Assembly: GCA_001000675.1 (NCBI GenBank)
Contig: LCHW01000002.1
Span: forward strand, 69,310 to 133,309
DNA length: 64,000 nt
Reading direction: 5' to 3'
Source of the DNA: Candidatus Wolfebacteria bacterium GW2011_GWE2_44_13
GTDB lineage: Bacteria; Patescibacteriota; Minisyncoccia; UBA6257; UBA9933
The translations under genes were made by a program, and so were the position numbers. The notes beneath the pieces were generated by a model. That model saw only the letters and a list, made by a program, of their open reading frames with translations. It had not been told where the DNA came from and did not search any database. This document shows positions 6,066 through 57,319 of this stretch, in pieces (the first letter of the stretch is position 1; every line of letters starts with the position of its first letter).

Positions 6066-6150
6066 TAATTACTTTTGACTTTTGAGTTGGCGAATGGTAT
6101 GAAAGAGGTAGTAAATTTACGACAACCCCTTACGTGTGCAAGGAGGCGAC

Positions 6151-6675
6151 ATGAATGGAAAGCAATATGACGCAATCGTGGCTTTCCCGTTTGGGAAAGC
6201 GGTTAGGCACAAGTCGGCCAATTGGCACATAGCCATGAGGGCAATAATACTTGCCTCCATACACAGTGTGCCTGTTGTGGCGCACGAAAGACTTCCCATA
6301 AAGACAATTGCACGCAAGTATGCAGAAGGTGCGAAAGTGCGGGAGTTGTCGATTGAGCTGATCGGCGGGGAAACGATTCTTGATGCGGCAGGCAATTTCT
6401 ATGCGTTTGCTGGGCGTGAGACGTGGAAGAATATCCTGCTCGTTTCGATGCCCTTTGTTTCGGAGCGCTGTGTTCGCGATATCGGGAAGGCGAGCGGGGG
6501 GAGATTTAACGTGACTCCTGAAAGTGAGCTGCAAAGGCTGAGTGTGTCGACTTGGTTTAGTCGCAGCGAAAAAAGGCTTTCTGCTCGACACCCGCTGATC
6601 TTCGGCATGAGCGAGTTTGGTTTACGCATGTTGCCATGGGCTGCCTATGAAGCCTTGGCAAAATCAAAGCCGTGA
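6151..6675 (+). CDS. Hypothetical protein, first gene of a GC-rich island.
   Basis: AAGGAGG RBS before ATG 6151. A hairpin plus T-run terminator follows at 6690..6712. GC content is clearly above its flanks. Confidence 0.5.
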   Translation: MNGKQYDAIVAFPFGKAVRHKSANWHIAMRAIILASIHSVPVVAHERLPIKTIARKYAEGAKVRELSIELIGGETILDAAGNFYAFAGRETWKNILLVSMPFVSERCVRDIGKASGGRFNVTPESELQRLSVSTWFSRSEKRLSARHPLIFGMSEFGLRMLPWAAYEALAKSKP

Positions 6676-6741
6676 GCGCAGGTGACGCACGAGCCCGCCC
6701 TTGAAAAAGGGTGGGCTTTTTTGTGGATAAAAAATGCTCCC

Positions 6742-7143
6742 CTAGAAGGGGAGCTTTTTACCAAACAGGTCGAGTTGCTCAGTCGGCGAAGCCGGCTGAA
6801 CAACAGACTGAGGAATCTCCTTGGTAGTCACTGTGGTAGTGACCGTAACGATGACTTTGTCATCATCAAGAAGATCGACATCGGCATACCGCGGACGCTC
6901 GGCGGAGGGGGGGTGGAGTATAAATTGTGCCATCTTGCGGCACGCTTCGTACTCCGGGTCGGTCAGCCGCTGTGACGGGTTGCGAGCAATCGCTCGGTCC
7001 GACGCATAGCGTGACTCGACCTTGACCCCGCGCCCCATGGGGACGAAGTGGAGGATAAGTTCAACCTCCCCCTCAATCTCCACCCACTCCGGTGGAGTGT
7101 TCTCCGTATCTCGACGGAGCTCTTTCGGGCCGTTGTCGGGCAT
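6742..7143 (-). CDS. Hypothetical protein (GC-rich island).
   Basis: 133 aa ORF with a minus-strand hairpin terminator at 6722..6752. Co-directional with and 25 bp downstream of 7169..7483. Confidence 0.5.
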   Translation of the reverse strand: MPDNGPKELRRDTENTPPEWVEIEGEVELILHFVPMGRGVKVESRYASDRAIARNPSQRLTDPEYEACRKMAQFILHPPSAERPRYADVDLLDDDKVIVTVTTTVTTKEIPQSVVQPASPTEQLDLFGKKLPF

Positions 7144-11576: not shown

Positions 11577-12122
11577 ATGAGCCGAAGAAAAAAGGCGCGA
11601 AGGCGCATGGAAGACCGTAGTGGAGGAGGGGAAGAAGGTTTCCATTTCAGCAGATACACATTCAGAGCGATGCGGCAGCGGGAAAATACGCATTACTGCT
11701 TTGTCTGTGGCGGTAAATTCGGATTCACGCCTGGAAGACAGGGGGAGGTGGAGAACGAAAAGGATAACAAAGTCACTCTCAGAAATGAGTGGGGCGAAGA
11801 AGTGCTCCTGCGCGACGCGCTTAGGGACGCACGCCTCGAAAAGTATATTGCCCAGGATGTTCGGTTGCATGAGCAGATAGCCGAAAAGGCCGTGTGGCAG
11901 TTAATGCTTAACCACGCTGCCGATTTTGAGCATACTGCTGAATTCGTGCAGTGGTGCAAAGAGAACGGGTACATTGTGCTCCAGCGCAATCCAATGGAGC
12001 ACCACGACCCTATAGCGCATGCCAATGCGGTTGTTGGAGGAGCTGACCAACACATGTTTGTCAGTGATTGGTTGCGGGCAAGGGCTCCGCAGGGCTTCCC
12101 CTATAGGGTTACGATTACATAG
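11577..12122 (+). CDS. Hypothetical protein, GC-rich (possible CxxC zinc-ribbon element).
   Basis: GGGGAGG RBS before ATG. Terminator hairpin at 12130..12157. Composition distinct from neighbours. Confidence 0.5.
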   Translation: MSRRKKARRRMEDRSGGGEEGFHFSRYTFRAMRQRENTHYCFVCGGKFGFTPGRQGEVENEKDNKVTLRNEWGEEVLLRDALRDARLEKYIAQDVRLHEQIAEKAVWQLMLNHAADFEHTAEFVQWCKENGYIVLQRNPMEHHDPIAHANAVVGGADQHMFVSDWLRARAPQGFPYRVTIT

Positions 12123-17094: not shown

Positions 17095-18081
17095 TCACGA
17101 GGCCGGCGTGATGCCGGCGATCTCGCACAGCTTAGTTGTGTGAGATGCTAAAATGCTTTCAATCAACGCTCTCTGCGGGTCATTGTCGCTAAGTCCGGAG
17201 AGTGTGGTTAAAAGATATTCGGGAGAGCGCTCGGCGTATTTTTCGCCAAGCAGGACGAGAAACCATTCAGCTGCGTCGCTTAGCTGCTGACGACTAGCCA
17301 CAACAAGCCAGTAGCTAATTGAGGAGGAAGTGAAGTTGAACTGTCTGATTTTATTTGCGCAGGCCTCACGGATTTGCTCGAATTCCGTCTCCATCAGGAG
17401 ATGGAAAAAGATATCGCTTTGAACATCGACGATTGCATTGATGAAATCAAACTCATGCTGCGGGTCACCCTTAAATTGGGAAAATATCCAGCGCAAGTCA
17501 TCCACATCGATACCCTGGACTCTTCGCGCAGCAGTTTTTGCGAAGAGCAGCATCGAAGCATGATCCCTCGACTGTCGCATTAAATCCTGGATTTTGCTGA
17601 ATGTAAGCGACTGACGAACAATTCCTTCCGCAAGGAGCGGCGCAAGTTCGGGGTTGGCGGGGGCAAAGAACGCTCTGATAAGCGCGCCTTGGCCATCAGG
17701 GGCCTGAGCACATGCTTCGATAATGTAGCACTGGACGTCTTGGTTGACAGCATACTTGAGGTAGTCAGTGAGCCTACCCATGAGGTAGTCGTGGTTCCGC
17801 ACCATTGCACCGCTCAGTATGAGTTGATAATCGGCGTAATGCTTATCGGTGTACAGGGAGAATATGTGTTCGGGTGTAAAATCTTTGTGCCCGAATGCTA
17901 CTCCGAGTGCAGTGCGGACCTGTTTAGGGTCGGTGAGCATGGAAATAATCCAGAGCAAGTCGTCCAGTGGCTCGATACTGCGAAGCGCATTCCGCACCTG
18001 TTTTCTGGCAAGTTTGCCGAGGTTGGTAAGAACTATTAAAGCCATGTACCGCTGAATCTGGGAATGTTCGGCCGTGGTCAT
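17095..18081 (-). CDS. Hypothetical protein, GC-rich and probably alpha-helical.
   Basis: 328 aa ORF with GC markedly above neighbours. Bidirectional terminator at 17053..17083. Confidence 0.5.
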   Translation of the reverse strand: MTTAEHSQIQRYMALIVLTNLGKLARKQVRNALRSIEPLDDLLWIISMLTDPKQVRTALGVAFGHKDFTPEHIFSLYTDKHYADYQLILSGAMVRNHDYLMGRLTDYLKYAVNQDVQCYIIEACAQAPDGQGALIRAFFAPANPELAPLLAEGIVRQSLTFSKIQDLMRQSRDHASMLLFAKTAARRVQGIDVDDLRWIFSQFKGDPQHEFDFINAIVDVQSDIFFHLLMETEFEQIREACANKIRQFNFTSSSISYWLVVASRQQLSDAAEWFLVLLGEKYAERSPEYLLTTLSGLSDNDPQRALIESILASHTTKLCEIAGITPAS

Positions 18082-28808: not shown

Positions 28809-28955
28809 GGCGTGATATAAATTAAGAATACGTATTACTCTATAGTATAGAGAAAAAGCGAGACAATGTGAAATAAACGCATTGACAGGGTATAGGGGTA
28901 GTGTTATATAGAAGATAGATACTATAAAAATCCATACAGAAAGAAGGTGATTTGC

Positions 28956-29498
28956 ATGGCGATGTTCCCGCAACGGGAAAAAGAAAAAGAGCAGCAAGAA
29001 CTTCCACTTATCTTTTCGCAGAGTCTGATTAGCGTAAGTGCTGACTTGTACAACGCATTGACGCGAGCAGCTGTCCGTAAAATGGGCGAGAAGCAGGTGA
29101 AAAATTTGCAGCTCAGTCTGTTACATCGGGTCGAACAGGAATTCATCCAGGAAAATCCCGAAGCAACGACGTTTGTCGTGCCACGGAAAGCGAGTGAGGT
29201 GTATCTACACCTCGTTGTGCTCGCAGTGGAAGATTGTCTGGATGCGTGGGAGCGACAAGCGCGCATAAAAGTACTCTTTCCGATTCACGGCACCACCGCA
29301 GTACAGAAAGAAGGTGAGCAGGATAGATTCCTGAGTGCTGTTCAGGAGGCAAGCGGAATCTACGGCCATATAAATGGCGGAGGCCTGCACCTCAAGGTGT
29401 CGTTATTCGGTGGAGATATTCCCGCCGAGCAAGTGAATCCCGACGAGCGACGGGGGAGATTGTACAAATATTTCGCCCGAAAAGGAGAAATACCATAA
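28956..29498 (+). CDS. Hypothetical protein, GC-rich.
   Basis: GAAGGTG RBS before ATG 28956. Terminator hairpin at 29500..29526. Confidence 0.45.
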   Translation: MAMFPQREKEKEQQELPLIFSQSLISVSADLYNALTRAAVRKMGEKQVKNLQLSLLHRVEQEFIQENPEATTFVVPRKASEVYLHLVVLAVEDCLDAWERQARIKVLFPIHGTTAVQKEGEQDRFLSAVQEASGIYGHINGGGLHLKVSLFGGDIPAEQVNPDERRGRLYKYFARKGEIP

Positions 29499-32649: not shown

Positions 32650-33108
32650 TTATTCAGCTGGAGTAGCTTCTTCTGCAGGAGCTGCTTCGGTTTCAGCCTC
32701 GGCTGCTTTTGCTGCCTCTGCTGCTTCTTTTGCTGCAGCTGCCTCTGCCTCCTTAGCTGCCTTTGCCGCTACAGCTGCTTCTTCATCGGCCTTTGCCTTT
32801 GCTTCAGCTGCTTTGCGAGGAGCATCAAGTGCTTCTGCGTGGGCTTTGATATCATGCGAAGACTTTTTCTTTGCTTTGATAACCTGATCCTTTACAAGAA
32901 TATTGTGAACAGTATCAGTTGCCTGAGCGCCTACGCTAATCCAGTAAGCTGCGCGTTCCTTGTTTACGGAATGCGTTTTTTCACGAGGATTCCAGAATCC
33001 AAGGTCTTCAACGTATTTTCCACCCATTTTAGATCGCTTTTCTGCGACTACGATACGGAAAGTTGGCTGGTTCTTCTTTCCTATTCGGTTTAACTTTATT
33101 GCTAACAT
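32650..33108 (-). CDS. rpsP: 30S ribosomal protein S16 with an Ala/Glu/Lys-rich C-terminal extension.
   Basis: MLAIKLNRIGKKNQPTFRIVVAEKRSK... S16 core (~80 aa) plus a ~70 aa AEAKAK low-complexity tail. Confidence 0.88.
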   Translation of the reverse strand: MLAIKLNRIGKKNQPTFRIVVAEKRSKMGGKYVEDLGFWNPREKTHSVNKERAAYWISVGAQATDTVHNILVKDQVIKAKKKSSHDIKAHAEALDAPRKAAEAKAKADEEAAVAAKAAKEAEAAAAKEAAEAAKAAEAETEAAPAEEATPAE

Positions 33109-33254
33109 AGTTGTAGTATAGTACTGAATAACGCCAGAAAATGCAAGGGCTAATCAGGCACTAGGGGAAATCAGCTAATTAGGTTGACGCAGAGGTATAA
33201 AGGTGGTATTTATGGGGTAGATCATACAATAATAAATAAGAGAGAGGACTGCAG

Positions 33255-33683
33255 ATGGAGACGCCGAAGAGAAAGAGAATTCTATTGATTGAGGGGACAG
33301 AATTACCGAGCAATACGGTGATTGAGCTGGTAAAGGCGGGGTACGTGCTCGAGTGGAATCTGCTCGACGAAACTACACCCGGGCGAATCAAACAGCAGTA
33401 TTCTCTGTACGATGTAATTGTCATCGGAGGAAGCGTAGAACGAGAAAAGCAGCACGAGCTGTTGCGAGCAATCTCGATTGTCGAGGGCGATGCCGTGAGA
33501 TTGCTTGTACCCGTGGTTTGCGTGGACCTTCGCGTTCCAAGGATAATTCGGCTCCAGGACCTCGTGTTGGTGCCGGATCAATTCGACGCCATTGCCGATG
33601 GAGTCAAAAGGGCGTTAGCCGATTTGGCTGGCGTAATGCGGCGCATGATGGAGCGCACTGCTGCGCGGGAGGCGAAGACATGA
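33255..33683 (+). CDS. Stand-alone pseudo-receiver (REC-fold) protein, array member 1. Phospho-acceptor positions degenerate.
   Basis: REC-like beta/alpha pattern: RILLIEG (beta1, DD replaced by EG), YDVIVIGG (beta3, Asp replaced by Gly), LLVPVVCVD (beta4). GC-rich. The overlapping frame 33353.. is Arg-rich off-frame. Confidence 0.55.
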   Translation: METPKRKRILLIEGTELPSNTVIELVKAGYVLEWNLLDETTPGRIKQQYSLYDVIVIGGSVEREKQHELLRAISIVEGDAVRLLVPVVCVDLRVPRIIRLQDLVLVPDQFDAIADGVKRALADLAGVMRRMMERTAAREAKT

Positions 33684-34024
33684 TAAAAAAGAAAACGCCC
33701 ACCATACCCGTATTGCTCGTCGGCAGCCGGGTGCTCGCAGAAATGTACAGGGAGCTGCTTGAAGTGCACAGCATTCAAGCCGATTGGGTGCGAAGCGATT
33801 TGACGGCATTTTCGATGCTTGAAATCGAAGGCGAGTACGACATTATCGTCGTGGACGGGTCGGCAATCTGCGGAGACTTCCTCGTCTTCATAGAAAGGTT
33901 GTACGAGGAAGTGCCTCCCTGGACATGGGTCGTTGGGTCGACGCAGATAAATGATGACACGCGTACGCAGCTTGTGCAGATGATAGTTGAAGATCTCGCT
34001 GCGCGAGGAAAAGTAATGCCATAG
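33680..34024 (+). CDS. Stand-alone REC-fold protein, array member 2 (retains Asp in the beta3 position).
   Basis: PVLLVGS (beta1), YDIIVVDGS (beta3), ATGA overlap with member 1, terminator gtggcggaccgaggtccgccac plus T-run at 34036..34066. Confidence 0.5.
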   Translation: MIKKKTPTIPVLLVGSRVLAEMYRELLEVHSIQADWVRSDLTAFSMLEIEGEYDIIVVDGSAICGDFLVFIERLYEEVPPWTWVVGSTQINDDTRTQLVQMIVEDLAARGKVMP

Positions 34025-34204
34025 TGCGAGCTACGAGTGGCGGACCGAGGTCCGCCACTTTTTTGTAAAAAGAAAATAATATGCAGCTTAAAAGATGCGT
34101 AAGATAGAAAAGTAGTATTCGATTGACAAAAGCTGACTGAAGCTGTATTAGATAATTAGTAAATAAAATCTCCGCACTACGCGGATCATAGAAAGGAGCA
34201 ACCC

Positions 34205-34555
34205 ATGAGGCGACTGCATATTTTGTTGATAACGAATCTGGAATGTGAGACGGAAATTGCCCAGCACCTACTTAAGGCGATGGGGCATGATCTTGATGAG
34301 GTGTATGATGCGATATGGGCGATTGAAAAAATTTCCCATAAAACATTTGACGCCATTATCGTTGCAGAATTTTCAGTAGAAGAGGCGGAGCTGATCGTGT
34401 GCGATATCAGGATGCAAACACAACAAAACATGTATAGTATTATCCTTAACAAGGAGGCTCAGCACAAAGAGCATAATGACTATGCTGATGAAGTGATTCC
34501 GTTAACTCGCCCGGCGCTGCGGGACGCATTGGCGCGCAAATTTAGCGGAGTGTAG
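34205..34555 (+). CDS. Stand-alone pseudo-receiver protein, array member 3.
   Basis: HILLITN (beta1), FDAIIVAEF (beta3, Asp replaced by Ala/Glu). Own TTGACA promoter. Terminator gtggcgagcccaggctcgccac at 34558..34587. Confidence 0.5.
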   Translation: MRRLHILLITNLECETEIAQHLLKAMGHDLDEVYDAIWAIEKISHKTFDAIIVAEFSVEEAELIVCDIRMQTQQNMYSIILNKEAQHKEHNDYADEVIPLTRPALRDALARKFSGV

Positions 34556-34663
34556 TAAGTGGCGAGCCCAGGCTCGCCACTTTTTTGTAGAAAATTTGAC
34601 CAACGCTTAGCTTTGTGTTATGAGTAATACAGTTCAAGTAAAATTCAATACAGAAGGGGAAGG

Positions 34664-35107
34664 GTGAAAATGAAAATTTTAGTTGTGGATGACGCGATGG
34701 CGAGTAAATACGTGGAAGCACTCATACTTGCCGGATACATGGTTGAGAGTGTACCAAGCGGAGAACAGGCATTGCGCAAAATTATGCAAGAGGGAGGGTA
34801 CGATCTGATGATTGTTACCCCGCGCATCTCTGACATGGAACCGGTTAAGCTTGTGAAGAAATGCCTAATGCCTTTACGAAGCAGGATGAAAACCATCGTG
34901 CCAATCATTTTGGCAGAGCGGCATGGCGACCGAATTACGCAAAATTGGTTTGTGATTGCTCCTGATGAAGTTGAGTCAGTGAAGCAAGCGATGAGAGATT
35001 GCCTTAACTTGCATCCGCCACAAAAAGAGAAGCCGGTGGAACAGCGAGAAGGGTTCTTTCATTGCTGGTTTAAAGATGTTTGGTGGCAACTGGGAATATC
35101 CTGGTAA
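34664..35107 (+). CDS. Stand-alone pseudo-receiver protein, array member 4 (keeps the beta1 Asp-Asp pair but lacks the phospho-acceptor Asp).
   Basis: KILVVDDAMAS (beta1), YDLMIVTPRISDMEPVKLVKK (beta3-alpha3, Asp replaced by Thr). Terminator gcggcgagcttaggctcgccg at 35130..35159. Confidence 0.55.
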   Translation: MKMKILVVDDAMASKYVEALILAGYMVESVPSGEQALRKIMQEGGYDLMIVTPRISDMEPVKLVKKCLMPLRSRMKTIVPIILAERHGDRITQNWFVIAPDEVESVKQAMRDCLNLHPPQKEKPVEQREGFFHCWFKDVWWQLGISW

Positions 35108-35257
35108 CCCCTCCTCCTTAATAAGAATGTGCGGCGAGCTTAGGCTCGCCGTTTTTTTAATAAATAAATCAGAAGGCTAACTTGACCGGATAAGAGATGA
35201 CGTGGTATGTATAAGATAGTTATTCAATTAAATAAATAGAGGGAAGGAGCTGAGCGG

Positions 35258-35659
35258 ATGCGTGCAAACGTGAAAAAGCCAAGGATCCTTATGGTGTGTC
35301 GAGGTATACGAGGATCACGACACAGGGAACATGCAACAGACCTGCGTAAGCGCGGATATATTGTCGAGTTTGTGGGTGATGTTAATAATCCGGAGGACCT
35401 ACTTGCAAGTGATTGGTATGAGGCAATCATAATCAATCGCGAAGTGGGATCCTTGTCTTGCAGAAAGGGTGATGGGTATGCATTTGCGAGGGAGGTTCGG
35501 GAAATCTATCCAGCGTTACCCATAATCGTAATTGATCGTAACTTAGCAAAAACACACGTCTACTCAGAAGACACACTGATGCAGATTGTGTGGGATGAGG
35601 CGGGATGGATTACAAATGCATTAGCAAAAATATTTCACCAAGAACCTTCTTTTGCATAA
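35258..35659 (+). CDS. Stand-alone pseudo-receiver protein, array member 5.
   Basis: RILMVCRG (beta1), YEAIIINRE...GDGYAFAREVREIYPALPIIVID (Asp replaced by Asn, then alpha3-beta4). GGAAGGAG RBS. Confidence 0.55.
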   Translation: MRANVKKPRILMVCRGIRGSRHREHATDLRKRGYIVEFVGDVNNPEDLLASDWYEAIIINREVGSLSCRKGDGYAFAREVREIYPALPIIVIDRNLAKTHVYSEDTLMQIVWDEAGWITNALAKIFHQEPSFA

Positions 35660-35684
35660 CATCGGTACGAAAGGATCTGAACGA

Positions 35685-36125
35685 ATGAGTGCGAGCGTGA
35701 AAAAGCCAAAGATTCTAATAGTATATCCAGTTCTGACGGAAGCCGAGAATGATCGATTCTGTATTGATTTGCGAGTTTTGGGGTACGACACGTACCTTAT
35801 GACAAGCGTGAGAGGTCTCGACAGAGATCTCGGCGCAACGAGATACGCCGCAGTTATTATTAGCAAGGCGATGCGCGACCCGCACCATGCGGGTAGCGAT
35901 GGCTATTCACTGGCCAGTCGCATCAAGAAAAGCAAACTTGCTATGCCGGTGATCGTGTTGGATCCGACGTGCGGGAATGCAGAAGATTGTATGCGGCTAG
36001 ACACGGGAGTGCGGGTCATCCCTGACACAGCGAGGAACCTCGAATACGTACTTGCAGAGTTATTCTACCCCGAGCGGGTAGAGCGTTTACGCATACATGC
36101 GGGCGCGATAGTCAAAGAGGGATAG
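35685..36125 (+). CDS. Stand-alone pseudo-receiver protein, array member 6 (closest paralogue of member 5).
   Basis: MSASVKKPKILIVYPVL resembles MRANVKKPRILMVCRGI. YAAVIISKAM...GSDGYSLASRIKKSKLAMPVIVLD (Asp replaced by Ser). Terminator at 36130..36163. Confidence 0.55.
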   Translation: MSASVKKPKILIVYPVLTEAENDRFCIDLRVLGYDTYLMTSVRGLDRDLGATRYAAVIISKAMRDPHHAGSDGYSLASRIKKSKLAMPVIVLDPTCGNAEDCMRLDTGVRVIPDTARNLEYVLAELFYPERVERLRIHAGAIVKEG

Positions 36126-36160
36126 TCGCAAAAAAGGCGCACCATACGGTGCGCCCCTTT

Positions 36161-38362
36161 TTATATCGTAGCGAGTGTTGGTGAATCAAACTTCACAGAC
36201 AATAATTTGGAAGTACCATCGTCATTCATGGTCACGCCGTAGAGTACGTCAGCTGTTTCCATAACGGTACGGTTATGCGTAACGACGATGAACTGCACTT
36301 TGTGTGCGAACTCTTTGATAAGGTGTGCAAATCGTTCCGAATTGCGTTCATCAAGCGGAGCGTCAATTTCATCAAGTACGAGAAATGGGGGAGGGCTTAC
36401 AGAAATAAGTGCAAAGAGTGCTGCGATAGAAACAAGACTCTTTTCTCCACCCGAGAGCACGTCAAGGCTGTTGATGCGTTTCTTCGGGAGGCTGAGTTCT
36501 ATTTCGATACCCGATTGCAATGGCTCTTCCGCCTGTTTCTGTTCTTCAAATTCAGACGTTTCTCCGCTTAGCTCTTCGACAATATGTTCAATGCTATGTG
36601 TCTTGATTTTCATCTTTGCCGAGCCACCGCCAAACATAAGACGAAAGAAGTGATTGAATTGATCGTTAATGTCTTTGAAGGCAGCATTGAATTTTCCGGT
36701 TACATCGCGCTTCAACTCTTCAACAAGCTCATTCAAGTCGGAAGATGCTTTTTCTAAATCGGCCGATTGAGTTACGAGATGTGCATGATGGGTCTCCACT
36801 TCGTTTGCTTCGGTGATAAGCGATTCATCTACGTCACCGATAGAGAGAAGTTCGGCACGGAGACGAAAAATCTGACGCTCTAAATCGGACAGTTGAAATT
36901 CAGAAAGAGATTCAGTGGAGCGAAGTGAGTCAAGCGCGGATTCTTCGTGTTCGTTTCGCACCCATTCAGCACGTAAATCAGTAAGACGGATAGAAACTTT
37001 TTCATTTTCAAAGGTAAGGTGCTGCACGCGATTTTCTATGGCACGAATTTCTTCGCGTTTAGCCTCTACAAGACTAAATGCTTCACGAAATCGTTGGTTA
37101 AAATCCGTAAGGCCTTGCGATAAAGATTCCTGCGCTTCCCTTACAAACTTAAGATTTTCATCAAGTCCAGCAAGAGCAAAAAGGAGATTATTTTTATCAT
37201 GTTCAATGTCTGCTTGTTCTGCGGAATAGTCAGGCTTTGGCAAATCAAGTTTTGGAGGGTTGAGATACGAATCTATTTTTGTGATAAGGGATTTAATTGT
37301 ATGGGAAAGTTGCGCAACATCATCTGATGAAGCATTTTCTTCAAGTGCATGCTTGATTTGGCGAATCAACGCGAGCATTTCTTCTTTGCGATAAACAACG
37401 CCTTGGTCCGATGTGGTGTCAGTAGAAAATTCAAGCTTCGCTTCGAGGCGGGCAACATCTTTTTGTAATTGAAAGCGCTTTGCGAGTAATGCGGTTTCCT
37501 CTGCCTTTAGCGTCGCAGCTTCCGCGTGTTGATCTTTCGTTGATTCAATTGTTTCGAGGGATTGTTGTAATTGTGAGAGTTCTTGTTGCTTGCGCGTGAT
37601 GTCTTCTTCTAACGCAAGAAGACTTGCTTTGTTTTGGCTTAGCTTGTCTTTAAGCGTAGAAACTTTTGTTCCGAAATACGATTGTTCTGCTGCAATTAAT
37701 TCATCGCGTTTTTGGTCGCGCGTTTGATATTTGGCAACTTGTCGCTTTAACATACGTAAGCGAGGAGTAACTTCTTCTATCATAATGCGGATCTTTTCAA
37801 GATTAAGCGCGGTGTTTTTTAGTTTTCGTTCAGCCTCAAGCTTTTTTAGTTGGTACTCTTTTAGGCCAAGGATTTCCTCAATCATAAAGCGACGCTCTTG
37901 GGGAGTTGCACGCACAAAAAGATCGCTCGAGCCCTGGTTGATGATCGTAAGGCCGCGCGTGCCCAAACGAGAGCGGGCAAAGAAGTCGATAATATCTTTT
38001 GCGCGCACATCAGATTTGTTAAGCCCATAGGTTGAGTTTCCATCGCGAGAGATTTCGCGGCTTACGGTAACCTCATCAAAATCAAGCGGGAAAAATTTAC
38101 CGCTGTTATCGAAGTTGATGCTTACTTGTGCCATGCCAGAGCGGGCGCGCTTAGGAGTGCCGGCAAAAATAAGATCTTCCGCTTTGCCACCGCGGAGATT
38201 CTTTGCCTCGCGTTCGCCGAGAATCCAACGAATCGCATCGATGACGTTTGACTTGCCGCTACCGTTTGGGCCTACGATGGCAGTAATGCCTCCGGGGAAT
38301 TCCAATACGGTTTTTTGTGCGAACGATTTGAATCCGTTCAGTTCGAGTGATTTCAGCAGCAT
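36161..38362 (-). CDS. smc: SMC-family chromosome segregation ATPase, short form (733 aa).
   Basis: N-terminal Walker A (GPNGSGKSN), long coiled-coil, C-terminal signature LSGGEKSL and Walker B/D-loop (FLVLDEIDAPLD). A hinge region is not obvious. Confidence 0.8.
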   Translation of the reverse strand: MLLKSLELNGFKSFAQKTVLEFPGGITAIVGPNGSGKSNVIDAIRWILGEREAKNLRGGKAEDLIFAGTPKRARSGMAQVSINFDNSGKFFPLDFDEVTVSREISRDGNSTYGLNKSDVRAKDIIDFFARSRLGTRGLTIINQGSSDLFVRATPQERRFMIEEILGLKEYQLKKLEAERKLKNTALNLEKIRIMIEEVTPRLRMLKRQVAKYQTRDQKRDELIAAEQSYFGTKVSTLKDKLSQNKASLLALEEDITRKQQELSQLQQSLETIESTKDQHAEAATLKAEETALLAKRFQLQKDVARLEAKLEFSTDTTSDQGVVYRKEEMLALIRQIKHALEENASSDDVAQLSHTIKSLITKIDSYLNPPKLDLPKPDYSAEQADIEHDKNNLLFALAGLDENLKFVREAQESLSQGLTDFNQRFREAFSLVEAKREEIRAIENRVQHLTFENEKVSIRLTDLRAEWVRNEHEESALDSLRSTESLSEFQLSDLERQIFRLRAELLSIGDVDESLITEANEVETHHAHLVTQSADLEKASSDLNELVEELKRDVTGKFNAAFKDINDQFNHFFRLMFGGGSAKMKIKTHSIEHIVEELSGETSEFEEQKQAEEPLQSGIEIELSLPKKRINSLDVLSGGEKSLVSIAALFALISVSPPPFLVLDEIDAPLDERNSERFAHLIKEFAHKVQFIVVTHNRTVMETADVLYGVTMNDDGTSKLLSVKFDSPTLATI

Positions 38363-38410
38363 GATGTTGTTACTATACTATAAAAAATGGCGTATTTCCA
38401 TGGGGAAAAC

Positions 38411-38578
38411 GAGGGAGGGTGTCATTCCCGCGGCCTGCTCCGTGTAAGAATAAATACTCCGCAGGCATTTCGGCACGTTGCACGCTTGCTTCGCTCGCTA
38501 GCAACGCCAAGTCAAGGCGGGAATCCATCCCCGCCAGTAAAATACTGGATTCCCGCCTCCGCGGGAATGACAGTAGGC
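38411..38578. repeat. Cluster of ATTCCC-N8-GGGAAT-type palindromic repeats: half-site at 38421..38433, IR GGCGGGAATCC...GGATTCCCGCC at 38517..38558, full unit at 38548..38574.
   Basis: Inverted repeats seen directly. Same family as 39098..39121, 39138..39160 and 40796..40821. Confidence 0.7.
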
Positions 38579-38707
38579 GGGGAGTTGGCAATATAGGAGG
38601 TTGACAGATTTGCAATATTATAGTAATGTATATAAATACAAATAAGGGTGGTAACGGCATTGTGCCAATAGGACTTTTCAAACCGAATAGTGAAAGGAAA
38701 AAAGAAG

Positions 38708-39043
38708 ATGGATAGCTATACGAAAAAGGTATTGCTGGTGATTGCACTTGCATTCGTGGTAGCAATAGCTTATCGGGTTGCTATTATGAAACCCGAAGCA
38801 GATGTGAAGGTCCAGCCGTATCCGGCGACAGTCCTGACGGATATGCAGATTGACAGGTACGGAAACATTATGTATCCCCTGTACTTTTGCATCGACGGAA
38901 GGTGTCGCACTCGAGTGACGTGCGGGAATGAATCCACCCCGCTATTCGAAAAAGGGAACAGGGTTACAGTGTGGCTTAAAACCAGCCCGCTGGAAGGGTC
39001 TGACTTGCTTTGCCTTGATAAGGTCGAGCTCGTCGGCCGATAA
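38708..39043 (+). CDS. Small membrane-anchored/secreted Cys-containing protein, paralogue A.
   Basis: N-terminal anchor LLVIALAFVVAIAYR. YPLYFCIDGRCRTRVTCGNESTPLFEKGNRVTVWLKTS aligns with paralogue B. Conserved TTGACAGATTTGCA promoter and 5'UTR. Terminator at 39058..39092. Confidence 0.6.
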   Translation: MDSYTKKVLLVIALAFVVAIAYRVAIMKPEADVKVQPYPATVLTDMQIDRYGNIMYPLYFCIDGRCRTRVTCGNESTPLFEKGNRVTVWLKTSPLEGSDLLCLDKVELVGR

Positions 39044-39097
39044 CTATTTCCGAAAAGTTCGTCGGGGCGCCACAAGGCGCCCCATTTTTTGTCCCGT

Positions 39098-39160
39098 GTC
39101 ATTCCCGCGGAGGCGGGAATCTAGTATTCAGCCAAATGGATTCCCACCTGTGCTGGAATG
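39098..39160. repeat. ATTCCC-N8-GGGAAT palindromic repeat (gtcattcccgcggaggcgggaatc) plus a degenerate partner copy.
   Basis: Seen directly. Same arrangement as 38517..38574. Confidence 0.7.
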
Positions 39161-39285
39161 ATAATACAAAAAGAAGAGAGTAATGAGAGATTGACAGATT
39201 TGCATTATTGATGTAATACATATTTATACAAATAGGCTAATGGCATCGTGCCAATAGGACATTTAAAAATCGAGAGGAATTCGAG

Positions 39286-39642
39286 ATGAGCGGTCGTGTG
39301 AAAACGTTTTTGTTAATAACTGCGCTGTTCTTGGTATTGGCGATAGCGTATCGCGATACCAGCCTCAAGCCCAAAGGAAGCTCTATTCACGAATACACGG
39401 TAACGATTATGAACAACGCGCAGATTGTAGATTTTTTCAAGGATAAGCCGTATCTGGCGTACCCTGTCTATGTGTGCGGAGACAGCAAAGAGTGTGCTAT
39501 GCGAATCCTTCCTGCTCGCGCAGTTCCGACTCCGCTCTATCAGGGGAATAAAATTAGTATCAGGACGAGCGAAGATATTAGCCAGACCGAAGGGCTGCTA
39601 TCGGTAGAGGACATTACACTGGTGATTATTGACACCCAGTAA
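39286..39642 (+). CDS. Small membrane-anchored/secreted Cys-containing protein, paralogue B.
   Basis: LLITALFLVLAIAYR anchor and YPVYVCGDSKECAMRILPARAVPTPLYQGNKISIRTS. Same promoter/5'UTR module as paralogue A. Terminator at 39643..39680. Confidence 0.6.
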   Translation: MSGRVKTFLLITALFLVLAIAYRDTSLKPKGSSIHEYTVTIMNNAQIVDFFKDKPYLAYPVYVCGDSKECAMRILPARAVPTPLYQGNKISIRTSEDISQTEGLLSVEDITLVIIDTQ

Positions 39643-39744
39643 AGTGAGGAGGCGCTGCAAGGCGCCTCATTTTTTACGGGGTTGCATTTATATTGCGAAA
39701 GGAGTATTACATATAGCTGTACAGCACATTAACAAAAGGCAAAA

Positions 39745-40177
39745 ATGCCTACTATGGGCCTTGGTGGGCCGTCGAACATACACCGCGCTTTCTTGTGTGA
39801 GAGCAGATGGAGAAAAAGTGGAACACATTATTGTGAGTGCAGTGGGGAATCTTTCGAGGCAATGCACATTTTCGTTTGTGCTGGTTGGCGTACATGGAAC
39901 AACGCCATGGAAGCCGCCGTACACAAAGGCATATGCTGTCATAATCGTACGGGTAAGCGGGCCTCCGAATGAGGTCGCCGCATTTTCAAAAGCGCTAAAA
40001 AGAGAAGCGAGCCGAACAAAGTCCTGTATTACGGTTGGGGCTGACGGTCGCTTCGACGCAGAAAGCGCTGAGAAAACGTACAGCGTCGAAATACTCGTGC
40101 CTGATAACTTTGGAACTCCACAGGAGTTCCTCAGTGGTAAGGCGAGAAAAATCGAAGACGCTTGCAAGAAACCGTAA
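39745..40177 (+). pseudogene. Frameshifted paralogue of 40300..40755. The conserved N-terminal peptide MPTMGLGGPSNIHRAF is in one frame. The homologous body continues in the -1/+2 frame to 40177.
   Basis: N-terminal 16 codons align with MPYLGLGGPSNMHRPF of the intact paralogue, mostly by synonymous differences. After ~39800 the frame with body similarity (LVGVHG..W...KAYAVIIVRVS vs LLGSHEW..KSDMVTVILAFSRS) is the other frame, which has no ATG. Terminator at 40195..40232. Confidence 0.5.
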
Positions 40178-40299
40178 AGGTTTTTGTAAGCATACAGAAT
40201 AAGCCGCGTCCTTGTGACGCGGCCTTTTTTAACTTGATAATTATTTTATGAAGTGGTATGACGTAGATAGTTACCTTATCAAAAGAAGCAAAGGCAGTA

Positions 40300-40755
40300 A
40301 TGCCTTATCTGGGCCTCGGTGGGCCGTCTAATATGCACCGACCCTTCGTAAGAAGGAGAAGAGGAGTTGCTATGACTGAGAAGAGAAGGCCAGGAAAGAA
40401 AGAGCGATTGGAAATGCCCTACAAGAGAATTTTTATCGAGGGCAACGAAGTGGGGCAGCTCTATTTACTAGGGTCTCATGAATGGGACGACAAGTCGGAT
40501 ATGGTCACGGTAATCCTTGCGTTTTCGAGAAGTAAATACGAAGGATATTTCATGGCGCTTATTCTCAGCGAAAATTTCTTTTTTATGAACGGAAGAACCA
40601 TTGAGGACTTCACGGGTAAAAGGAAGATGATGACTGGGACGTTGCGACAATTAGTCCCGCGGCAGGGCGACCAGATAGGGTTTATAGCAAATATTGCCGA
40701 GCGCATAGGGAAGGTCTTGGGAACGCACCTTCCGAGCCTCGAAGAGATGGGATAG
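40300..40755 (+). CDS. Hypothetical protein with conserved N-terminal peptide MPYLGLGGPSNMHRPF (intact paralogue).
   Basis: 151 aa. AAAGG RBS before ATG. Terminator at 40760..40795. Confidence 0.55.
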   Translation: MPYLGLGGPSNMHRPFVRRRRGVAMTEKRRPGKKERLEMPYKRIFIEGNEVGQLYLLGSHEWDDKSDMVTVILAFSRSKYEGYFMALILSENFFFMNGRTIEDFTGKRKMMTGTLRQLVPRQGDQIGFIANIAERIGKVLGTHLPSLEEMG

Positions 40756-40795
40756 TGCAAAAAGCCGCGAGTAATCGCGGCCTTTTTTTGTATTG

Positions 40796-40821
40796 TCATT
40801 CCCGCGGAGGCGGGAATGACA
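40796..40821. repeat. Perfect ATTCCC-N8-GGGAAT palindrome gtcattcccgcggaggcgggaatgac at the 3' end of rnc.
   Basis: Seen directly. Confidence 0.75.
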
Positions 40822-40823
40822 GA

Positions 40824-55167: not shown

Positions 55168-55231
55168 AAGTAATTTAAAATAGCCCGTCAGCATGCTGAC
55201 GGGCTATTTTTATTGTGATATACTTATACAC

Positions 55232-57319
55232 ATGAATACCCGCACAAGAAAGATTGTATATACATCGACTGGTATTGTAATAATAGTAGTAGGAGTTGTC
55301 GTTACACAACAAGGGTTTGCATGGACAAATCCAGCGAGCAACCCACCACTCGGGACGAACACCATAAACATTTCAGGAAGTAAAGTTGGGATAGGAACAA
55401 CAAATCCATTCGGAGTATTTGAATCGTTTACAAATCTCGATATCCCGGCTGTTCGAGGTAATAGCACGGGTGCTTCGGGCGTGGGGGTAAATGGAGAGAG
55501 TACGGCATCCGGAGCGGGAGCGGGCGTTTCGGCAAAGGGATGGAGGGGTGTATATGCGGAGTCAACTGATTTAGTTAATGGATGGGCAGGATATTTTCTC
55601 GGGAGGGGATATTTTAGTGGCAACGTCGGCGTTGGAACGGCAACACTTGATACAAACTATCGCATTACAACGAGCGGGGGAGGTGTAAAAGCAGGGAACA
55701 GTAGTGCAACCCAACCAGCAGGGTATTTTAGTAACGCGGGAGGAGGTCCTGCTATTACTGTGGGAACAGGGGGTATTACACTAGGCGGAGTAAACCAAAC
55801 CGCATGGCCAGTGAGTGCGAGTCAGTGGACGACTTCAGGAGATGATATCTACAAAGCAAATATAGGGAACGTTGGAATCGGAAAAACAAACCCACAAAAT
55901 GCCCTGCATATTTTCACAACGTTACCTGCGGGAGGTCTTGATATTGACGGGACCGCATCTAATTCTATTGTTCGATTTAAGAACAACGGGACATCAAAGG
56001 CGTTTGTTGGCATTGCTAATAGCGCGGGGGCTATTATAAATGGTTCTACTGCTAATGATACCGCAATTAGATTTGATGGTGGTAATTTATTATTTGGATA
56101 TGGAGCAACTGAAGTGGCACGCATAACATCAGGGGGTGATATGGGAATTGGAACGACAGCACCCGAAGCAAAATTGCATGTCGCGGGGAATATTGTTGTA
56201 AACGGAGTAAATATCGGAACAGGGAGTGGTAATATTTCTTCAAACACTGCCGTAGGACTCTATAGCTTATTTGCGAACAGTGGTGGCTATAGTAATAGTG
56301 CATTTGGATCGTCTGCTCTGTTTTCCAATACGTCGGGTATGTATAATACCGCGCTTGGAGGAGGTGCGTTATATTCAAACACCACGGGAGGTTATAATAC
56401 TGCAGTTGGACCAGATACTCTTCGTTTTAATACAACAGGAACATACAATACTGGAGTTGGTTTGGAAGTACTCACGAGCAATACAATTGGCACGGATAAT
56501 ACTGCGATTGGATCGCGTACGCTTCTTTTAAATACTTCCGGAAACCTAAATACCGCGGTTGGTTCAAGAGCACTCTATGCTAATACAGGGAGCTGGAACA
56601 CCGCGGTCGGTGGGTACGCTTTGGACTCGAATACTACGGGTAATTATAATGTTGCGAGCGGATATAATGCACTTACTGCGAATACATTAGGCAGCTTAAA
56701 TACGGCAGTTGGTCCTGGTGCATTGCAATCTAGCATGACTGGGTTAAGTAATACTGCGATTGGACAGAACTCAAATTCAAGCAATACTACGGGGTCATAT
56801 AACGTTTCACTTGGCGCAAGTTCACTTATGTCCAATAGTACCGGATCCAATAATACCGCAGTTGGTTATTTGGCAAACGTGGCGTCTGGTGCTCTTACGA
56901 ATGCAACGGCAATTGGTTACAATGCAATCGTTAACGCAAGTAATAAAGTTCGCATTGGTGGTACGGCAGTAACAGTTATCGAGGGCCAAGTGGGTTGGTC
57001 TATTGGCTCGGATATTCGCCTAAAGCACGACGTCGTAGATAGCGACCTCGGACTAGGATTTATCAATAAATTGCGTCCCGTTTCCTATAAGTTAAATAAT
57101 GGAGACGGCGGATTAAACTACGGATTTATTGCGCAAGAAGTTGAGGCTGCAGTAGGAAAGAAAACGAATATTGTCATGACAGACAATACTCCTGAGATGA
57201 TGAAGACAATGCGCTACACAGACTTGATTGCCCCAATGGTAAAAGCAATTCAGGAACAGCAATTGCAAATAAAAGAGCAAAAAGAGCGAATAGAAAAACT
57301 CGAAGCGCTCATAAAATAA
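55232..57319 (+). CDS. Membrane-anchored fibre protein with YadA-head/Hep_Hag-like NTAVG repeats and a C-terminal peptidase S74 intramolecular-chaperone domain (phage tail-fibre-like).
   Basis: N-terminal TM helix (IVYTSTGIVIIVVGVVV). More than 20 repeats of ..NTAxG..AL..NT.G. C-terminal SDIRLKHDV...GFIAQEVEAAV...DLIAPMVKAIQEQ typical of the S74 IMC domain. Confidence 0.65.
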   Translation: MNTRTRKIVYTSTGIVIIVVGVVVTQQGFAWTNPASNPPLGTNTINISGSKVGIGTTNPFGVFESFTNLDIPAVRGNSTGASGVGVNGESTASGAGAGVSAKGWRGVYAESTDLVNGWAGYFLGRGYFSGNVGVGTATLDTNYRITTSGGGVKAGNSSATQPAGYFSNAGGGPAITVGTGGITLGGVNQTAWPVSASQWTTSGDDIYKANIGNVGIGKTNPQNALHIFTTLPAGGLDIDGTASNSIVRFKNNGTSKAFVGIANSAGAIINGSTANDTAIRFDGGNLLFGYGATEVARITSGGDMGIGTTAPEAKLHVAGNIVVNGVNIGTGSGNISSNTAVGLYSLFANSGGYSNSAFGSSALFSNTSGMYNTALGGGALYSNTTGGYNTAVGPDTLRFNTTGTYNTGVGLEVLTSNTIGTDNTAIGSRTLLLNTSGNLNTAVGSRALYANTGSWNTAVGGYALDSNTTGNYNVASGYNALTANTLGSLNTAVGPGALQSSMTGLSNTAIGQNSNSSNTTGSYNVSLGASSLMSNSTGSNNTAVGYLANVASGALTNATAIGYNAIVNASNKVRIGGTAVTVIEGQVGWSIGSDIRLKHDVVDSDLGLGFINKLRPVSYKLNNGDGGLNYGFIAQEVEAAVGKKTNIVMTDNTPEMMKTMRYTDLIAPMVKAIQEQQLQIKEQKERIEKLEALIK

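Follow-up and report, generated by a model that had tools for sequence, protein, structure and literature searches.

Gene layout and transcription units

Six consecutive small open reading frames, G1 to G6, lie at positions 33255–36125 on the forward strand of the 64-kb stretch of DNA that was analysed (the window). As the original prediction had it, they encode proteins of 114–146 residues. All six are intact and have Shine–Dalgarno sequences, and independent gene callers return the same genes; the NCBI record differs in the starts of G3 and G6. Coordinates are given in Table 1.

The genes form four promoter-to-terminator units (G1–G2, G3, G4 and G5–G6) rather than the six independently transcribed genes that had been proposed. 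The stop codon of G1 and the start codon of G2 overlap as ATGA, and the gap between G5 and G6 is 25 nt long and has no hairpin. At both junctions the sequence folds no better than shuffled sequences. Every unit has a promoter-like TTGAC-N17/18-TAT site on its 5′ side and a strong terminator on its 3′ side. The site of unit 1 ends 42 nt 5′ of the G1 start and was not listed by a generic sigma-70 scan because its −10 hexamer is weak. The three terminator hairpins described previously exist and a fourth follows G6; for these four hairpins no more than one in 200 shuffles folds as well. The terminators had been described as paralogous; those of units 1 and 2 share 83% identity across 36 nt that include the tail.

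Table 1. Genes and putative regulatory sites of the cluster. Promoter-like sites come from a pattern scan and reading, and their function is putative.
Feature	Position	Strand	Details
Unit 1 (G1–G2) promoter-like site	33184..33212	+	TTGACG, 17 nt, TATTTA
G1	33255..33683	+	142 aa
G2	33680..34024	+	114 aa
Unit 1 (G1–G2) intrinsic terminator	34035..34066	+	11-bp stem and T tract; −21.3 kcal/mol, z −4.5
Unit 2 (G3) promoter-like site	34123..34151	+	TTGACA, 17 nt, TATTAG
G3	34205..34555	+	116 aa
Unit 2 (G3) intrinsic terminator	34557..34588	+	−20.9 kcal/mol, z −6.3
Unit 3 (G4) promoter-like site	34596..34624	+	TTGACC, 17 nt, TATGAG
G4	34670..35107	+	145 aa
Unit 3 (G4) intrinsic terminator	35131..35159	+	−18.9 kcal/mol
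Unit 4 (G5–G6) promoter-like site	35182..35211	+	TTGACC, 18 nt, TATGTA
G5	35258..35659	+	133 aa
G6	35685..36125	+	146 aa
Bidirectional terminator, common to unit 4 and convergent smc	36136..36160	.	−17.0 kcal/mol

The array had been described as GC-rich throughout. This is true of G1, G2 and G6 (GC 0.52–0.54 and GC3 0.57–0.63, against a mean GC3 of 0.43 ± 0.08 for the genes of the window) but not of G3 to G5, which have ordinary GC; other genes of the window without any domain match are equally GC3-rich.

Receiver ancestry and relatives

The beta-strand and alpha3 motifs quoted in the original prediction are present in the sequences, and a receiver (REC) fold had been assigned to all six proteins. 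The assignment is supported for G4, G5 and G6 and is not borne out for G1; for G2 and G3 there are suggestive signs. All matches obtained with the six proteins score below the curated family thresholds.

For G4, which of the six stands closest to a canonical receiver, REC ancestry has good support. Its match to Pfam Response_reg (E = 3.5e-4, 21 bits, under the gathering score of 30.2) is the only Pfam match of note. Among NCBIfam models, 14 of its 15 matches are response regulators or receiver-containing sensor kinases, and 47 of 48 weak PDB matches are receivers, aligned in register. The protein shares 35% identity with Escherichia coli CheY over 66 residues and has a Trp-rich C-terminal tail. 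Comparison by hhalign with a hand-typed receiver reference profile that was validated against the PDB, where it matches about 0.2% of distinct sequences (335/177,635), gives 95.6%. When 782 ORFs from the window and related loci were ranked with a receiver HMM, the first four places went to G4 (E = 5.6e-7), G5, G6 and G3.

The ancestry of the G5/G6 family is likewise well supported. G5 matches Response_reg with E = 0.03 and reaches 84% against the receiver profile. The family profile of G5, G6 and their relative P0003 matches PDB receivers and gives 94.6%. The AF2 model of G5 (pLDDT 58, pTM 0.58), for which G6 was the sole other alignment row, has the element order beta1-alpha1-beta2-alpha2-beta3-alpha3-beta4...alpha5; in a Foldseek search of the PDB all 50 of its 50 best matches are receiver domains, with TM scores of 0.47–0.65. 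Confidence in both AF2 models, this one and that of G1, is low to moderate (pLDDT 58 and 61), and both come from very shallow alignments. G5 and G6 keep the Asp-Gly typical of receivers at the start of alpha3, and G6 has a conserved C-terminal FYPER motif.

For G2 and G3 the evidence is suggestive: all their matches are sub-significant, but almost all align with receivers in register. G3 is a probable pseudo-receiver: its weak NCBIfam matches are in register with CheY and the receivers of ArcB, TorS and EvgS, and five of its seven weak PDB matches are receivers, including the pseudo-receiver of FrzS over residues 17–109. It scores 17% against the receiver profile, compared with at most 0.4% for shuffles. 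Ten of the 11 weak PDB matches of G2 (five of six independent proteins) are receivers, and its sole NCBIfam match is VanR-O. Asp59 of G2 falls on the phospho-acceptor Asp in the alignments with 3i42, PmrA and 2qxy. The protein is probably a truncated receiver derivative that extends from beta1 to alpha4.

G1 is an alpha/beta protein whose beta-alpha pattern resembles that of receivers, the fold being uncertain. It has no receiver match by Pfam, NCBIfam, PDB or hhalign. The model, the C-terminal half of which is unreliable, resembles generic alpha/beta folds, with type II periplasmic-binding-protein/LysR effector domains slightly above receivers; an AF2 run with receiver-like paralogues as the alignment still gave no receiver signal. 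Stand-alone receiver proteins from structural genomics (for example 3i42, 2qxy, 2rdm and 2b4a) are among the best matches, by sequence or structure, of G2, G5 and G1. They too are small, receiver-only and without an assigned function or partner, but each comes from a single gene that clearly belongs to a Pfam family, unlike the clustered orphan set described here.

The cluster had been viewed as a tandem array of paralogues. The demonstrable paralogues are G5 and G6 only (28% identity, E = 8e-15, hhalign 97%), the 5′ ends of which share a 60-nt repeat with 78% identity. Apart from themselves, G1 and G2 are both most similar to G4, weakly and in register. For G2 the hhalign score is 24.4, a value reached by none of 120 shuffles, the significance being overstated since the shuffles used for G1 and G2 break the hydrophobic periodicity common to alpha/beta proteins. 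The cluster seems to have grown partly through local duplication, of G5 to G6 and of terminators, and to have evolved very fast.

Outside the cluster the proteins are near-orphans. G1, G2 and G5 found only themselves among 5.8 billion clusters, as did G2 in a word-index search. When 1.84 billion protein representatives were searched in full by HMMER with the G5+G6 profile, the search returned one true relative, P0003 (in L022), which is 41–43% identical to G6 over its full length. It is encoded in a higher-GC organism with the same regulatory layout and is preceded by the same promoter hexamers as unit 4, which argues for a maintained gene. Metagenomic copies of the cluster differ little or not at all (a single mismatch, in L004) and therefore provide no population evidence for purifying selection.

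Active-site residues

The alignments place the following residues at the acidic pair, the putative beta3 end (the phospho-acceptor site), and the Thr/Ser and Lys positions: Glu13 Gly14, Gly58, Asp91 and Val106 in G1; Thr10 Asn11, Ala54, Asn82 and Ile98 in G3; Asp7 Asp8, Thr50, Glu83 and Ala97 in G4; Cys14 Arg15, Asn60, Asp93 and no Lys in G5; and Tyr14 Pro15, Ser60, Asp93 and Ile112 in G6. G2 keeps the Asp (Asp59) and a Ser (Ser87), has Gly15 Ser16 in place of the acidic pair and lacks the beta5/Lys region. The acceptor Asp is thus replaced in five of the six and the acidic pair, kept in G4 and half-kept in G1, is gone elsewhere, both as predicted. An Asp stands at the end of beta4 in G1, G5, G6 and P0003. 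The active-site Lys is missing from all six.

None of the six has a full DD-D-T-K active site, and in none does an acceptor Asp accompany the Mg2+-binding acidic pair. Because none keeps all five catalytic residues (acidic pair, acceptor Asp, Thr/Ser and Lys), all six are pseudo-receivers by the current definition, five of them aspartate-less, and canonical Mg2+-dependent phosphotransfer is therefore not possible. The description of the products as stand-alone CheY-like proteins without canonical phosphorylation fits most of the cluster.

Genomic setting and interpretation

The cluster is a species-specific insertion at the conserved junction of convergent smc and divergent rpsP in one groundwater Candidatus Wolfebacteria species (CPR/Patescibacteria). 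Related genomes carry zero or two genes at this place. The junction is empty in five related loci (L008, L009, L019, L020 and L021); L007/L013 have two small, unrelated genes there, and L010/L018 an aminoacyl-tRNA synthetase. Roughly 45 nt upstream of rpsP, similarity to the relatives ends. In the remainder of the 64-kb window there is no Pfam match to HisKA, HATPase_c, Hpt, Response_reg or an output domain, in agreement with the earlier statement that such genes are not nearby; the count covers Pfam-matching genes, and several genes of the window match no Pfam family.

We consider it probable that these genes represent diverged pseudo-receivers in a lineage-specific accessory cluster. Inserted at the smc/rpsP junction, the cluster would produce six small cytoplasmic alpha/beta proteins from four sigma-70-type units. 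G4, G5 and G6 at least, and probably G2 and G3, would be extremely diverged, single-domain descendants of CheY-like receivers.

Small flavodoxin-like or Rossmann-like proteins that mimic the periodicity of CheY might account for some or all of the products. The idea is serious mainly for G1, with its failure to match receivers and a model slightly closer to LysR effector domains, and less so for G2, where support is sub-significant. It is improbable overall, since the weak matches of G3 to G6 are consistently to receivers, in register and in several independent databases, G1 and G2 are most similar to G4, and the half of the G1 model that is C-terminal is unreliable. We regard as very improbable the proposal that the proteins are working phospho-acceptors with non-canonical chemistry, G2 through Asp59 and G1, G5 and G6 through the beta4-end Asp (equivalent to Thr87), served by a kinase elsewhere in the genome. 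The alignment of Asp59 with the phospho-Asp of solved receivers and the recurrent beta4-end Asp are compatible with it, and the search for kinases covered the window only. Nevertheless, the only protein with an acidic pair carries Thr in place of the acceptor Asp, all six lack the Lys, no kinase lies within the 64 kb, and CPR genomes have the lowest kinase frequencies, with 19% of them kinase-less (PMC10805038).

The genes may alternatively be evolutionary debris, either decaying response-regulator remnants or neutral young ORFs in a permissive intergenic hot spot, with no current function. Extreme divergence, loss of catalytic residues, orphan status, the apparent truncation of G2, occurrence in one of four closely related species and the orphan genes accumulated at the neighbouring smc–rnc junction of the same genome could all be explained in this way. 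We find this unlikely given six intact ORFs with Shine–Dalgarno sequences, a promoter-like site and strong terminator for each unit, retained hydrophobic beta-alpha periodicity and the G6 homologue in a different organism; a streamlined genome of about 1 Mb would also be expected to purge 2.9 kb of junk. Somewhat less likely again is a hypervariable conflict or host-interaction cassette, in which the receiver scaffold would serve as a fast-evolving binding module rather than in housekeeping signalling, for instance by providing decoys or inhibitors that target proteins of phages or hosts, or by regulating the nearby type IV pilus ATPase. Such a cassette would be consistent with a conserved junction of species-specific content (zero, two or six genes among genomes with SMC 82–84% identical), neighbours diverged beyond recognition, self-contained promoter-gene-terminator modules and the raised GC3 of G1, G2 and G6, a possible sign of foreign origin. 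A PilB-like T2SSE ATPase is encoded 1.2 kb from the cluster, and type IV pili are a target of pseudo-receivers, FrzS among them (PMC9811614; PMC1974792). That ATPase also adjoins the junction in relatives without the cluster, which makes a coincidental linkage probable. Against the cassette, PADLOC and PHROG gave no meaningful match, viral contigs and phage genomes gave no match to the queries used, namely G4 and the alignment of G5 with G6, and integrase, tRNA and flanking repeats are absent.

Returning to diverged pseudo-receivers, the original view that the array fits no described arrangement went too far. Pseudo-receivers, like receivers without the aspartate, belong to a class that has been described and is common, comprising about 4% of REC domains or about two per bacterial genome (PMC4395418; PMC12632262), with examples that include the FrzS N-terminal domain, ShkA Rec1, KaiA-N, RitR, HP1043 and ChxR (PMC12632262; PMC4395418; PMC1974792). 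Their modes of action are dimerisation and the binding of ligands or partners (PMC12632262). The present proteins resemble them in having no adjacent kinase, most characterised members also being orphans, and FrzS itself is among the best PDB matches of G3. Known members, however, match the Pfam receiver models and in most cases form fusions with output domains, whereas these are single-domain, score below all curated thresholds, are almost without homologues and number four to six at one locus. With canonical single-domain response regulators (CheY, Spo0F, DivK and CpdR) they share size (about 115–145 residues), stand-alone character and predicted order of secondary structure, together with the Asp-Gly of G5/G6 and the acidic pair of G4. 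Those regulators are phosphorylated on a conserved Asp and need DD, T and K, a set that is incomplete in all six proteins, and the cluster has no chemotaxis, phosphorelay or kinase genes nearby.

By analogy with characterised pseudo-receivers we tentatively suggest that the proteins might function independently of phosphorylation, serving as adaptors or binding modules, through homo- or hetero-dimerisation or by binding a partner protein or ligand. The cluster would then represent a known kind of protein, the divergent stand-alone pseudo-receiver, in an unusual clustered and lineage-specific arrangement.

Organization and transcription of the gene cluster

The six small genes between smc and rpsP (G1–G6) are also called by the NCBI, JGI, ENA and Logan gene callers, with G3 starting later (91 aa) and G6 earlier (157 aa) in the NCBI record. 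The original prediction treated them as six independent units. We find four. The stop codon of G1 overlaps the start codon of G2 in the sequence ATGA, only 25 nt separate G5 from G6, and shuffled versions of either junction fold no worse than the real sequence. Terminators comprising a hairpin and a T-tract follow G2, G3, G4 and G6 (−21.3, −20.9, −18.9 and −17.0 kcal/mol, respectively; at most one in 200 shuffles folds equally well), and promoter-like TTGAC(G/A/C/C)-N17/18-TAT sites are located 42–70 nt upstream of the start codons of G1, G3, G4 and G5. From the overlap, the close spacing and the placement of these elements it follows that the cluster consists of four self-contained transcription units for small soluble proteins.

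Coordinates of the features discussed (positions in the window unless a contig or locus is named)
Feature	Position	Strand	Length	Remark
G1	33255-33683	+	142 aa	Shine-Dalgarno-like sequence
G2	33680-34024	+	114 aa	Shine-Dalgarno-like sequence
G3	34205-34555	+	116 aa	Shine-Dalgarno-like sequence
G4	34670-35107	+	145 aa	Shine-Dalgarno-like sequence
G5	35258-35659	+	133 aa	Shine-Dalgarno-like sequence
G6	35685-36125	+	146 aa	Shine-Dalgarno-like sequence
G5 5' direct repeat	35244-35303		60 nt	
G6 5' direct repeat	35671-35730		60 nt	
G1 D91, putative β4 end	33515-33527			
G5 D93, putative β4 end	35522-35536			
G6 D93, putative β4 end	35949-35963			
P0003 D96, putative β4 end	in L022			
P0003 contig	L022 1-939		939 nt	Logan SRR22387861
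GWB1_47_1 junction genes	L007 12265-13090			CP011209.1; 120 and ~121-138 aa
Ribosomal protein S16	32650-33108	-	152 aa	
SMC homologue	36161-38362	-	733 aa	
smc-rnc junction	38363-40823			
smc-rnc junction gene	38690-39043	+		no domain match
smc-rnc junction gene	39286-39642	+		no domain match
smc-rnc junction gene	~39764-40177	+		no domain match
smc-rnc junction gene	40300-40755	+		no domain match
Pfam-less gene	6136-7143			
Pfam-less gene	11577-12122			
Pfam-less gene	17095-18081			
Pfam-less gene	28947-29498			
Peptidase_S74 protein	55193-57319		708 aa	

Two features point to local duplication within the cluster, as had been proposed from paralogous terminators. Over 36 nt, counting the tail, the G2 and G3 terminators share 83% identity; for the third, which follows G4, the figure is 61%. 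In addition, a direct repeat of 78% identity spans the ribosome-binding site and first 15 codons (M-x-A-x-V-K-K-P-x-I-L) of G5 and G6. This segment is much more alike than the remainder of the two genes, which share 28% amino-acid identity, and suggests gene conversion or a constrained N-terminus.

Evidence for receiver identity among the encoded proteins

None of the six proteins reaches a curated family threshold in Pfam or NCBIfam. The gathering score of PF00072 (Response_reg) is 30.2 bits, and the best scores against it, all lower, are 21.1 bits for G4 (E 3.5e-4), 14.9 bits for G5 and 14.3 bits for P0003, a homologue of G5 and G6 from outside the cluster; G1, G2, G3 and G6 have no match to this family. 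Profile and sequence comparisons bear out the receiver reading in part, with remote homology for G4 and the G5/G6 family, suggestive matches for G2 and G3 and none for G1.

The case is best made for G4. Response_reg is its top Pfam match, 14 of 15 NCBIfam matches are response regulators or receiver-containing sensor kinases, and 47 of 48 sequence matches in the PDB are receivers, aligned in register. Comparison by hhalign with a receiver profile gave 95.6%. That profile was built from seven sequences; it is validated by its retrieval of PhoB, NtrC, Spo0F, CheY and KdpE from the PDB with E values of 1e-44 to 1e-48. G5 and G6 are paralogues (E 8e-15; hhalign 97%). Their family profile, which includes P0003, gave 94.6% against the receiver profile; in the PDB it had 26 matches, of which about 21 are receivers, the best being those of NtrC, a hybrid kinase and RcsC. 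Response_reg is the sole Pfam match of G5 and of P0003, in the same register. These alignments argue for remote receiver homology of both G4 and the G5/G6/P0003 family.

Receiver homology of G3 and G2 is suggestive. Five of the seven weak PDB matches of G3 are receivers, among them the FrzS pseudo-receiver over residues 17–109, and its NCBIfam matches are the ArcB, TorS and EvgS receivers together with CheY; hhalign against the receiver profile gave 17%, with shuffles at 0.4% or below. For G2, ten of 11 weak PDB matches are receivers in register, corresponding to five of six independent proteins. At E ≤ 0.001 the receiver profile matches just 335 of the 177,635 distinct sequences in the PDB, so the dominance of receivers among these weak matches is not a matter of chance. 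Among 782 ORFs taken from the window plus five related loci, the receiver HMM placed G4, G5, G6 and G3 in ranks 1–4.

G1 and G2 are joined to the other cluster proteins only by in-register similarity to G4 (hhalign 25.0 for G1 and 24.4 for G2, against 12 ± 2.2 for residue shuffles, none of 120 as high), a control that erases the alpha/beta periodicity and hence overstates significance. Neither hhalign nor PDB matches identified G1 as a receiver, and an alternative reading gives G1 and G2 some other fold.

A word-index search of 5.8 billion protein clusters returned for G1, G2 and G5 only the query itself, and with no deep alignments to draw on the AF2 models stay at a pLDDT of about 60. The G5 model is of modest quality (pLDDT 58, pTM 0.58). 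It follows the order β1-α1-β2-α2-β3-α3-β4...α5, with α4/β5 unmodelled, and its best 50 Foldseek matches in the PDB are all receiver domains (TM 0.47–0.65). The G1 model is credible in its N-terminal half only and its structural matches are generic. A TIR or other flavodoxin-like fold was considered for G4–G6 and rejected, the sequence and structure matches being specifically to receivers.

Active-site residues and class

The equivalents of CheY Asp12, Asp13, Asp57, Thr87 and Lys109 were taken from alignments, in which the β4 and β5 assignments fall in low-confidence regions. None of G1–G6 carries the full set of acidic pair, β3 Asp, β4 Thr/Ser and β5 Lys. In no protein, P0003 included, does the acceptor Asp occur together with the metal-binding acidic pair, and the Lys is absent from all. 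The original prediction that the acceptor is replaced in five of six copies is upheld, G2 being the exception. A side observation is that an Asp at the putative β4 end, the position of CheY Thr87, is common to G1, G5, G6 and P0003, which lack the β3-end Asp.

Alignment-based equivalents of the CheY active-site residues
Protein	D12-D13	D57	T87	K109
G1	E13-G14	G58	D91	V106
G2	G15-S16	D59	S87	no β5
G3	T10-N11	A54	N82	I98
G4	D7-D8	T50	E83	A97
G5	C14-R15	N60	D93	W112
G6	Y14-P15	S60	D93	I112
P0003	Y17-P18	G63	D96	V114

Most of the cluster proteins are receiver-derived and lack the catalytic residues. On the alignments, G4, G5 and G6 fall within the definition of a pseudo-receiver (PMC12632262), and G2 and G3 probably do so; the label would extend to G1 if G1 is a receiver. 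By the same alignments G3, G4, G5 and G6 qualify as aspartate-less receivers (PMC4395418), as would G1, provided that it is a receiver. G2, which keeps its Asp, does not belong to this class.

Pseudo-receivers are common, making up about 4% of receiver domains or about two per bacterial genome (PMC4395418), and most of those characterized are orphans with no adjacent kinase (PMC12632262). The earlier statement that the array fits no described arrangement was therefore too strong. We classify the cluster as new, very divergent members of this well described class. What sets G1–G6 apart is the combination of stand-alone genes, divergence below thresholds, a near-total lack of homologues and clustering, four to six genes of this kind sitting together in an insertion specific to one species of the Patescibacteria (CPR).

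Origin and possible role of the cluster

The region is matched in DNTT01000008.1 (GCA_003508115.1) and in groundwater metagenome contigs, including Rifle 'ACD_81C' bins. Six further copies (L001–L006) show next to no variation, L004 having one mismatch. The closest genomes are Candidatus Wolfebacteria, with SMC 82–84% identical. In five loci of relatives and outgroups (L008, L009, L019, L020 and L021) rpsP comes straight after the smc stop, 56–563 nt away, and in a more distant lineage (L010/L018) the junction holds an aminoacyl-tRNA synthetase. The similarity between window and relatives stops about 45 nt upstream of rpsP and no relics of the cluster were found in the empty junctions; the cluster is therefore a derived, species-specific insertion.

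At this junction Wolfebacteria GWB1_47_1 (L007/L013), a close relative, carries a pair of small genes in the same orientation as G1–G6. Inspected by eye, their hydrophobic residues are spaced much as in receivers, and one of them has ...VIIDGG... where β3 would end. They were rejected as orthologues, BLAST, phmmer and hhalign detecting no similarity to G1–G6. Nor are they claimed as receivers: the receiver HMM put them in ranks 5 and 6, though only at E > 1, and they have no detectable similarity to receiver profiles.

An exhaustive HMMER search of 1.84 billion representatives with a G5+G6 profile gave one real relative, P0003 (150 aa, E 4e-27, 41–43% identical to G6); a 2,516-aa repeat protein was rejected as low-complexity. 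The P0003 contig (55% GC) carries promoter hexamers TTGACC-N18-TATGTA, as before G5, and flanking terminators, so that a similar cluster may exist in another organism. A gene fragment upstream of P0003, with the end ...IACTVIDVVP...GVIFVPNMLGVAAELKKIRPGQ, resembles the C-terminus of an alpha/beta protein.

The array had been described as GC-richer than its flanks. This applies to G1, G2 and G6, in which GC is raised and GC3 is 0.57–0.63, compared with 0.43 ± 0.08 for window genes, and does not apply to G3–G5. Related genomes have 49–55% GC, and the pattern would fit acquisition from a relative of higher GC but does not prove it. Four Pfam-less genes elsewhere in the window have GC3 of 0.53–0.66; a high GC3 seems to be a general mark of this genome's accessory or orphan genes and not one specific to the receiver-like cluster. 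Signs of a mobile element were sought and no tRNA genes, Rfam families, integrases or convincing flanking repeats were found; the short inverted repeats detected fall within rpsP and probably reflect chance. PADLOC gave only noise-level matches and PHROG no meaningful match, G4 matching phrog_731 (of unknown function) over its receiver-like N-terminus. Viral contigs searched with a G5+G6 alignment and phage genomes searched with G4 gave no match.

Orphan genes seem to gather at core-gene junctions of this genome, on the strand opposite the core genes. The smc-rnc junction holds four small genes, the first two of which look paralogous and membrane-anchored, each followed by a GGCGCC-type terminator (39066 and 39651); only one homologue is present at this junction in L008 and L009, and L007 shows a ~600-nt gap. 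Domain-less small genes at 28947, 29875, 38690, 39286, 39764, 40300 and 43032 are not receiver-like and were rejected as cluster members. Bacterial SMC is usually much longer, at about 1,150–1,200 aa, than the homologue here, which has only 733 aa; a short form is kept in all related Wolfebacteria loci. Ribosomal protein S16 has a long Ala/Glu/Lys-rich C-terminal extension, conserved in close relatives. Elsewhere in the window, a protein with a C-terminal Peptidase_S74 domain (E 1e-11), an intramolecular chaperone of endosialidase and tail fibres, may be phage-tail-fibre-like or a surface-fibre protein.

As originally predicted, no kinase, output-domain or Hpt gene is nearby: among the called genes elsewhere in the 64-kb window there is no HisKA, HATPase_c, Hpt, CheA, CheW, receiver or output-domain Pfam match. 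By analogy with known pseudo-receivers, canonical phosphorylation would not be possible for the products of G1–G6 and, if functional, they would work by binding or as adaptors, using dimerization surfaces and conformations that are either constitutive or under the control of a ligand or partner (PMC12632262). Candidate interaction sites in G5, G6 and P0003 are the Asp-Gly-Tyr that opens α3 and a FYPER motif conserved at the C-terminus. Binding modules have to be weighed against non-functional debris, against a non-canonical phosphorylation and against a diversifying cassette for conflict or host interaction. It is tempting to link the cluster to the neighbouring PilB-like ATPase, since FrzS is among the receiver proteins that control type IV pili (PMC9811614, PMC1974792); the link is weakened because the ATPase adjoins the same site in relatives that lack the cluster.

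A bolder proposal, which we regard as improbable, is that the Wolfebacteria smc|rpsP junction is a hot spot at which a fast-diversifying, phosphorylation-independent binding module has been made out of the receiver scaffold. The cluster would then represent a new class of accessory cassette, with a promoter and terminator for each unit, serving host interaction, pilus control or conflict in an episymbiotic CPR bacterium rather than a signalling relic, and the GWB1_47_1 pair would be diverged members.

The original observation is confirmed in part and its interpretation supported in part. The value of the cluster is limited by its occurrence in one species and by pseudo-receivers being well described as a class. 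What turns bacterial pseudo-receivers on and off is a question acknowledged as open (PMC12632262), and small stand-alone proteins such as these are handy for structural work and binding experiments. Because proteins of receiver descent can diverge past the threshold of every curated model, Pfam-based censuses under-count pseudo-receivers. CPR bacteria have the fewest two-component genes, with about 0.29 kinases per 100 genes and none in 19% of genomes (PMC10805038), so four to six genes of receiver descent are out of proportion for a genome of about 1 Mb. The cluster provides a concrete case of stand-alone pseudo-receivers gained, duplicated and diversified at a defined core-gene junction.
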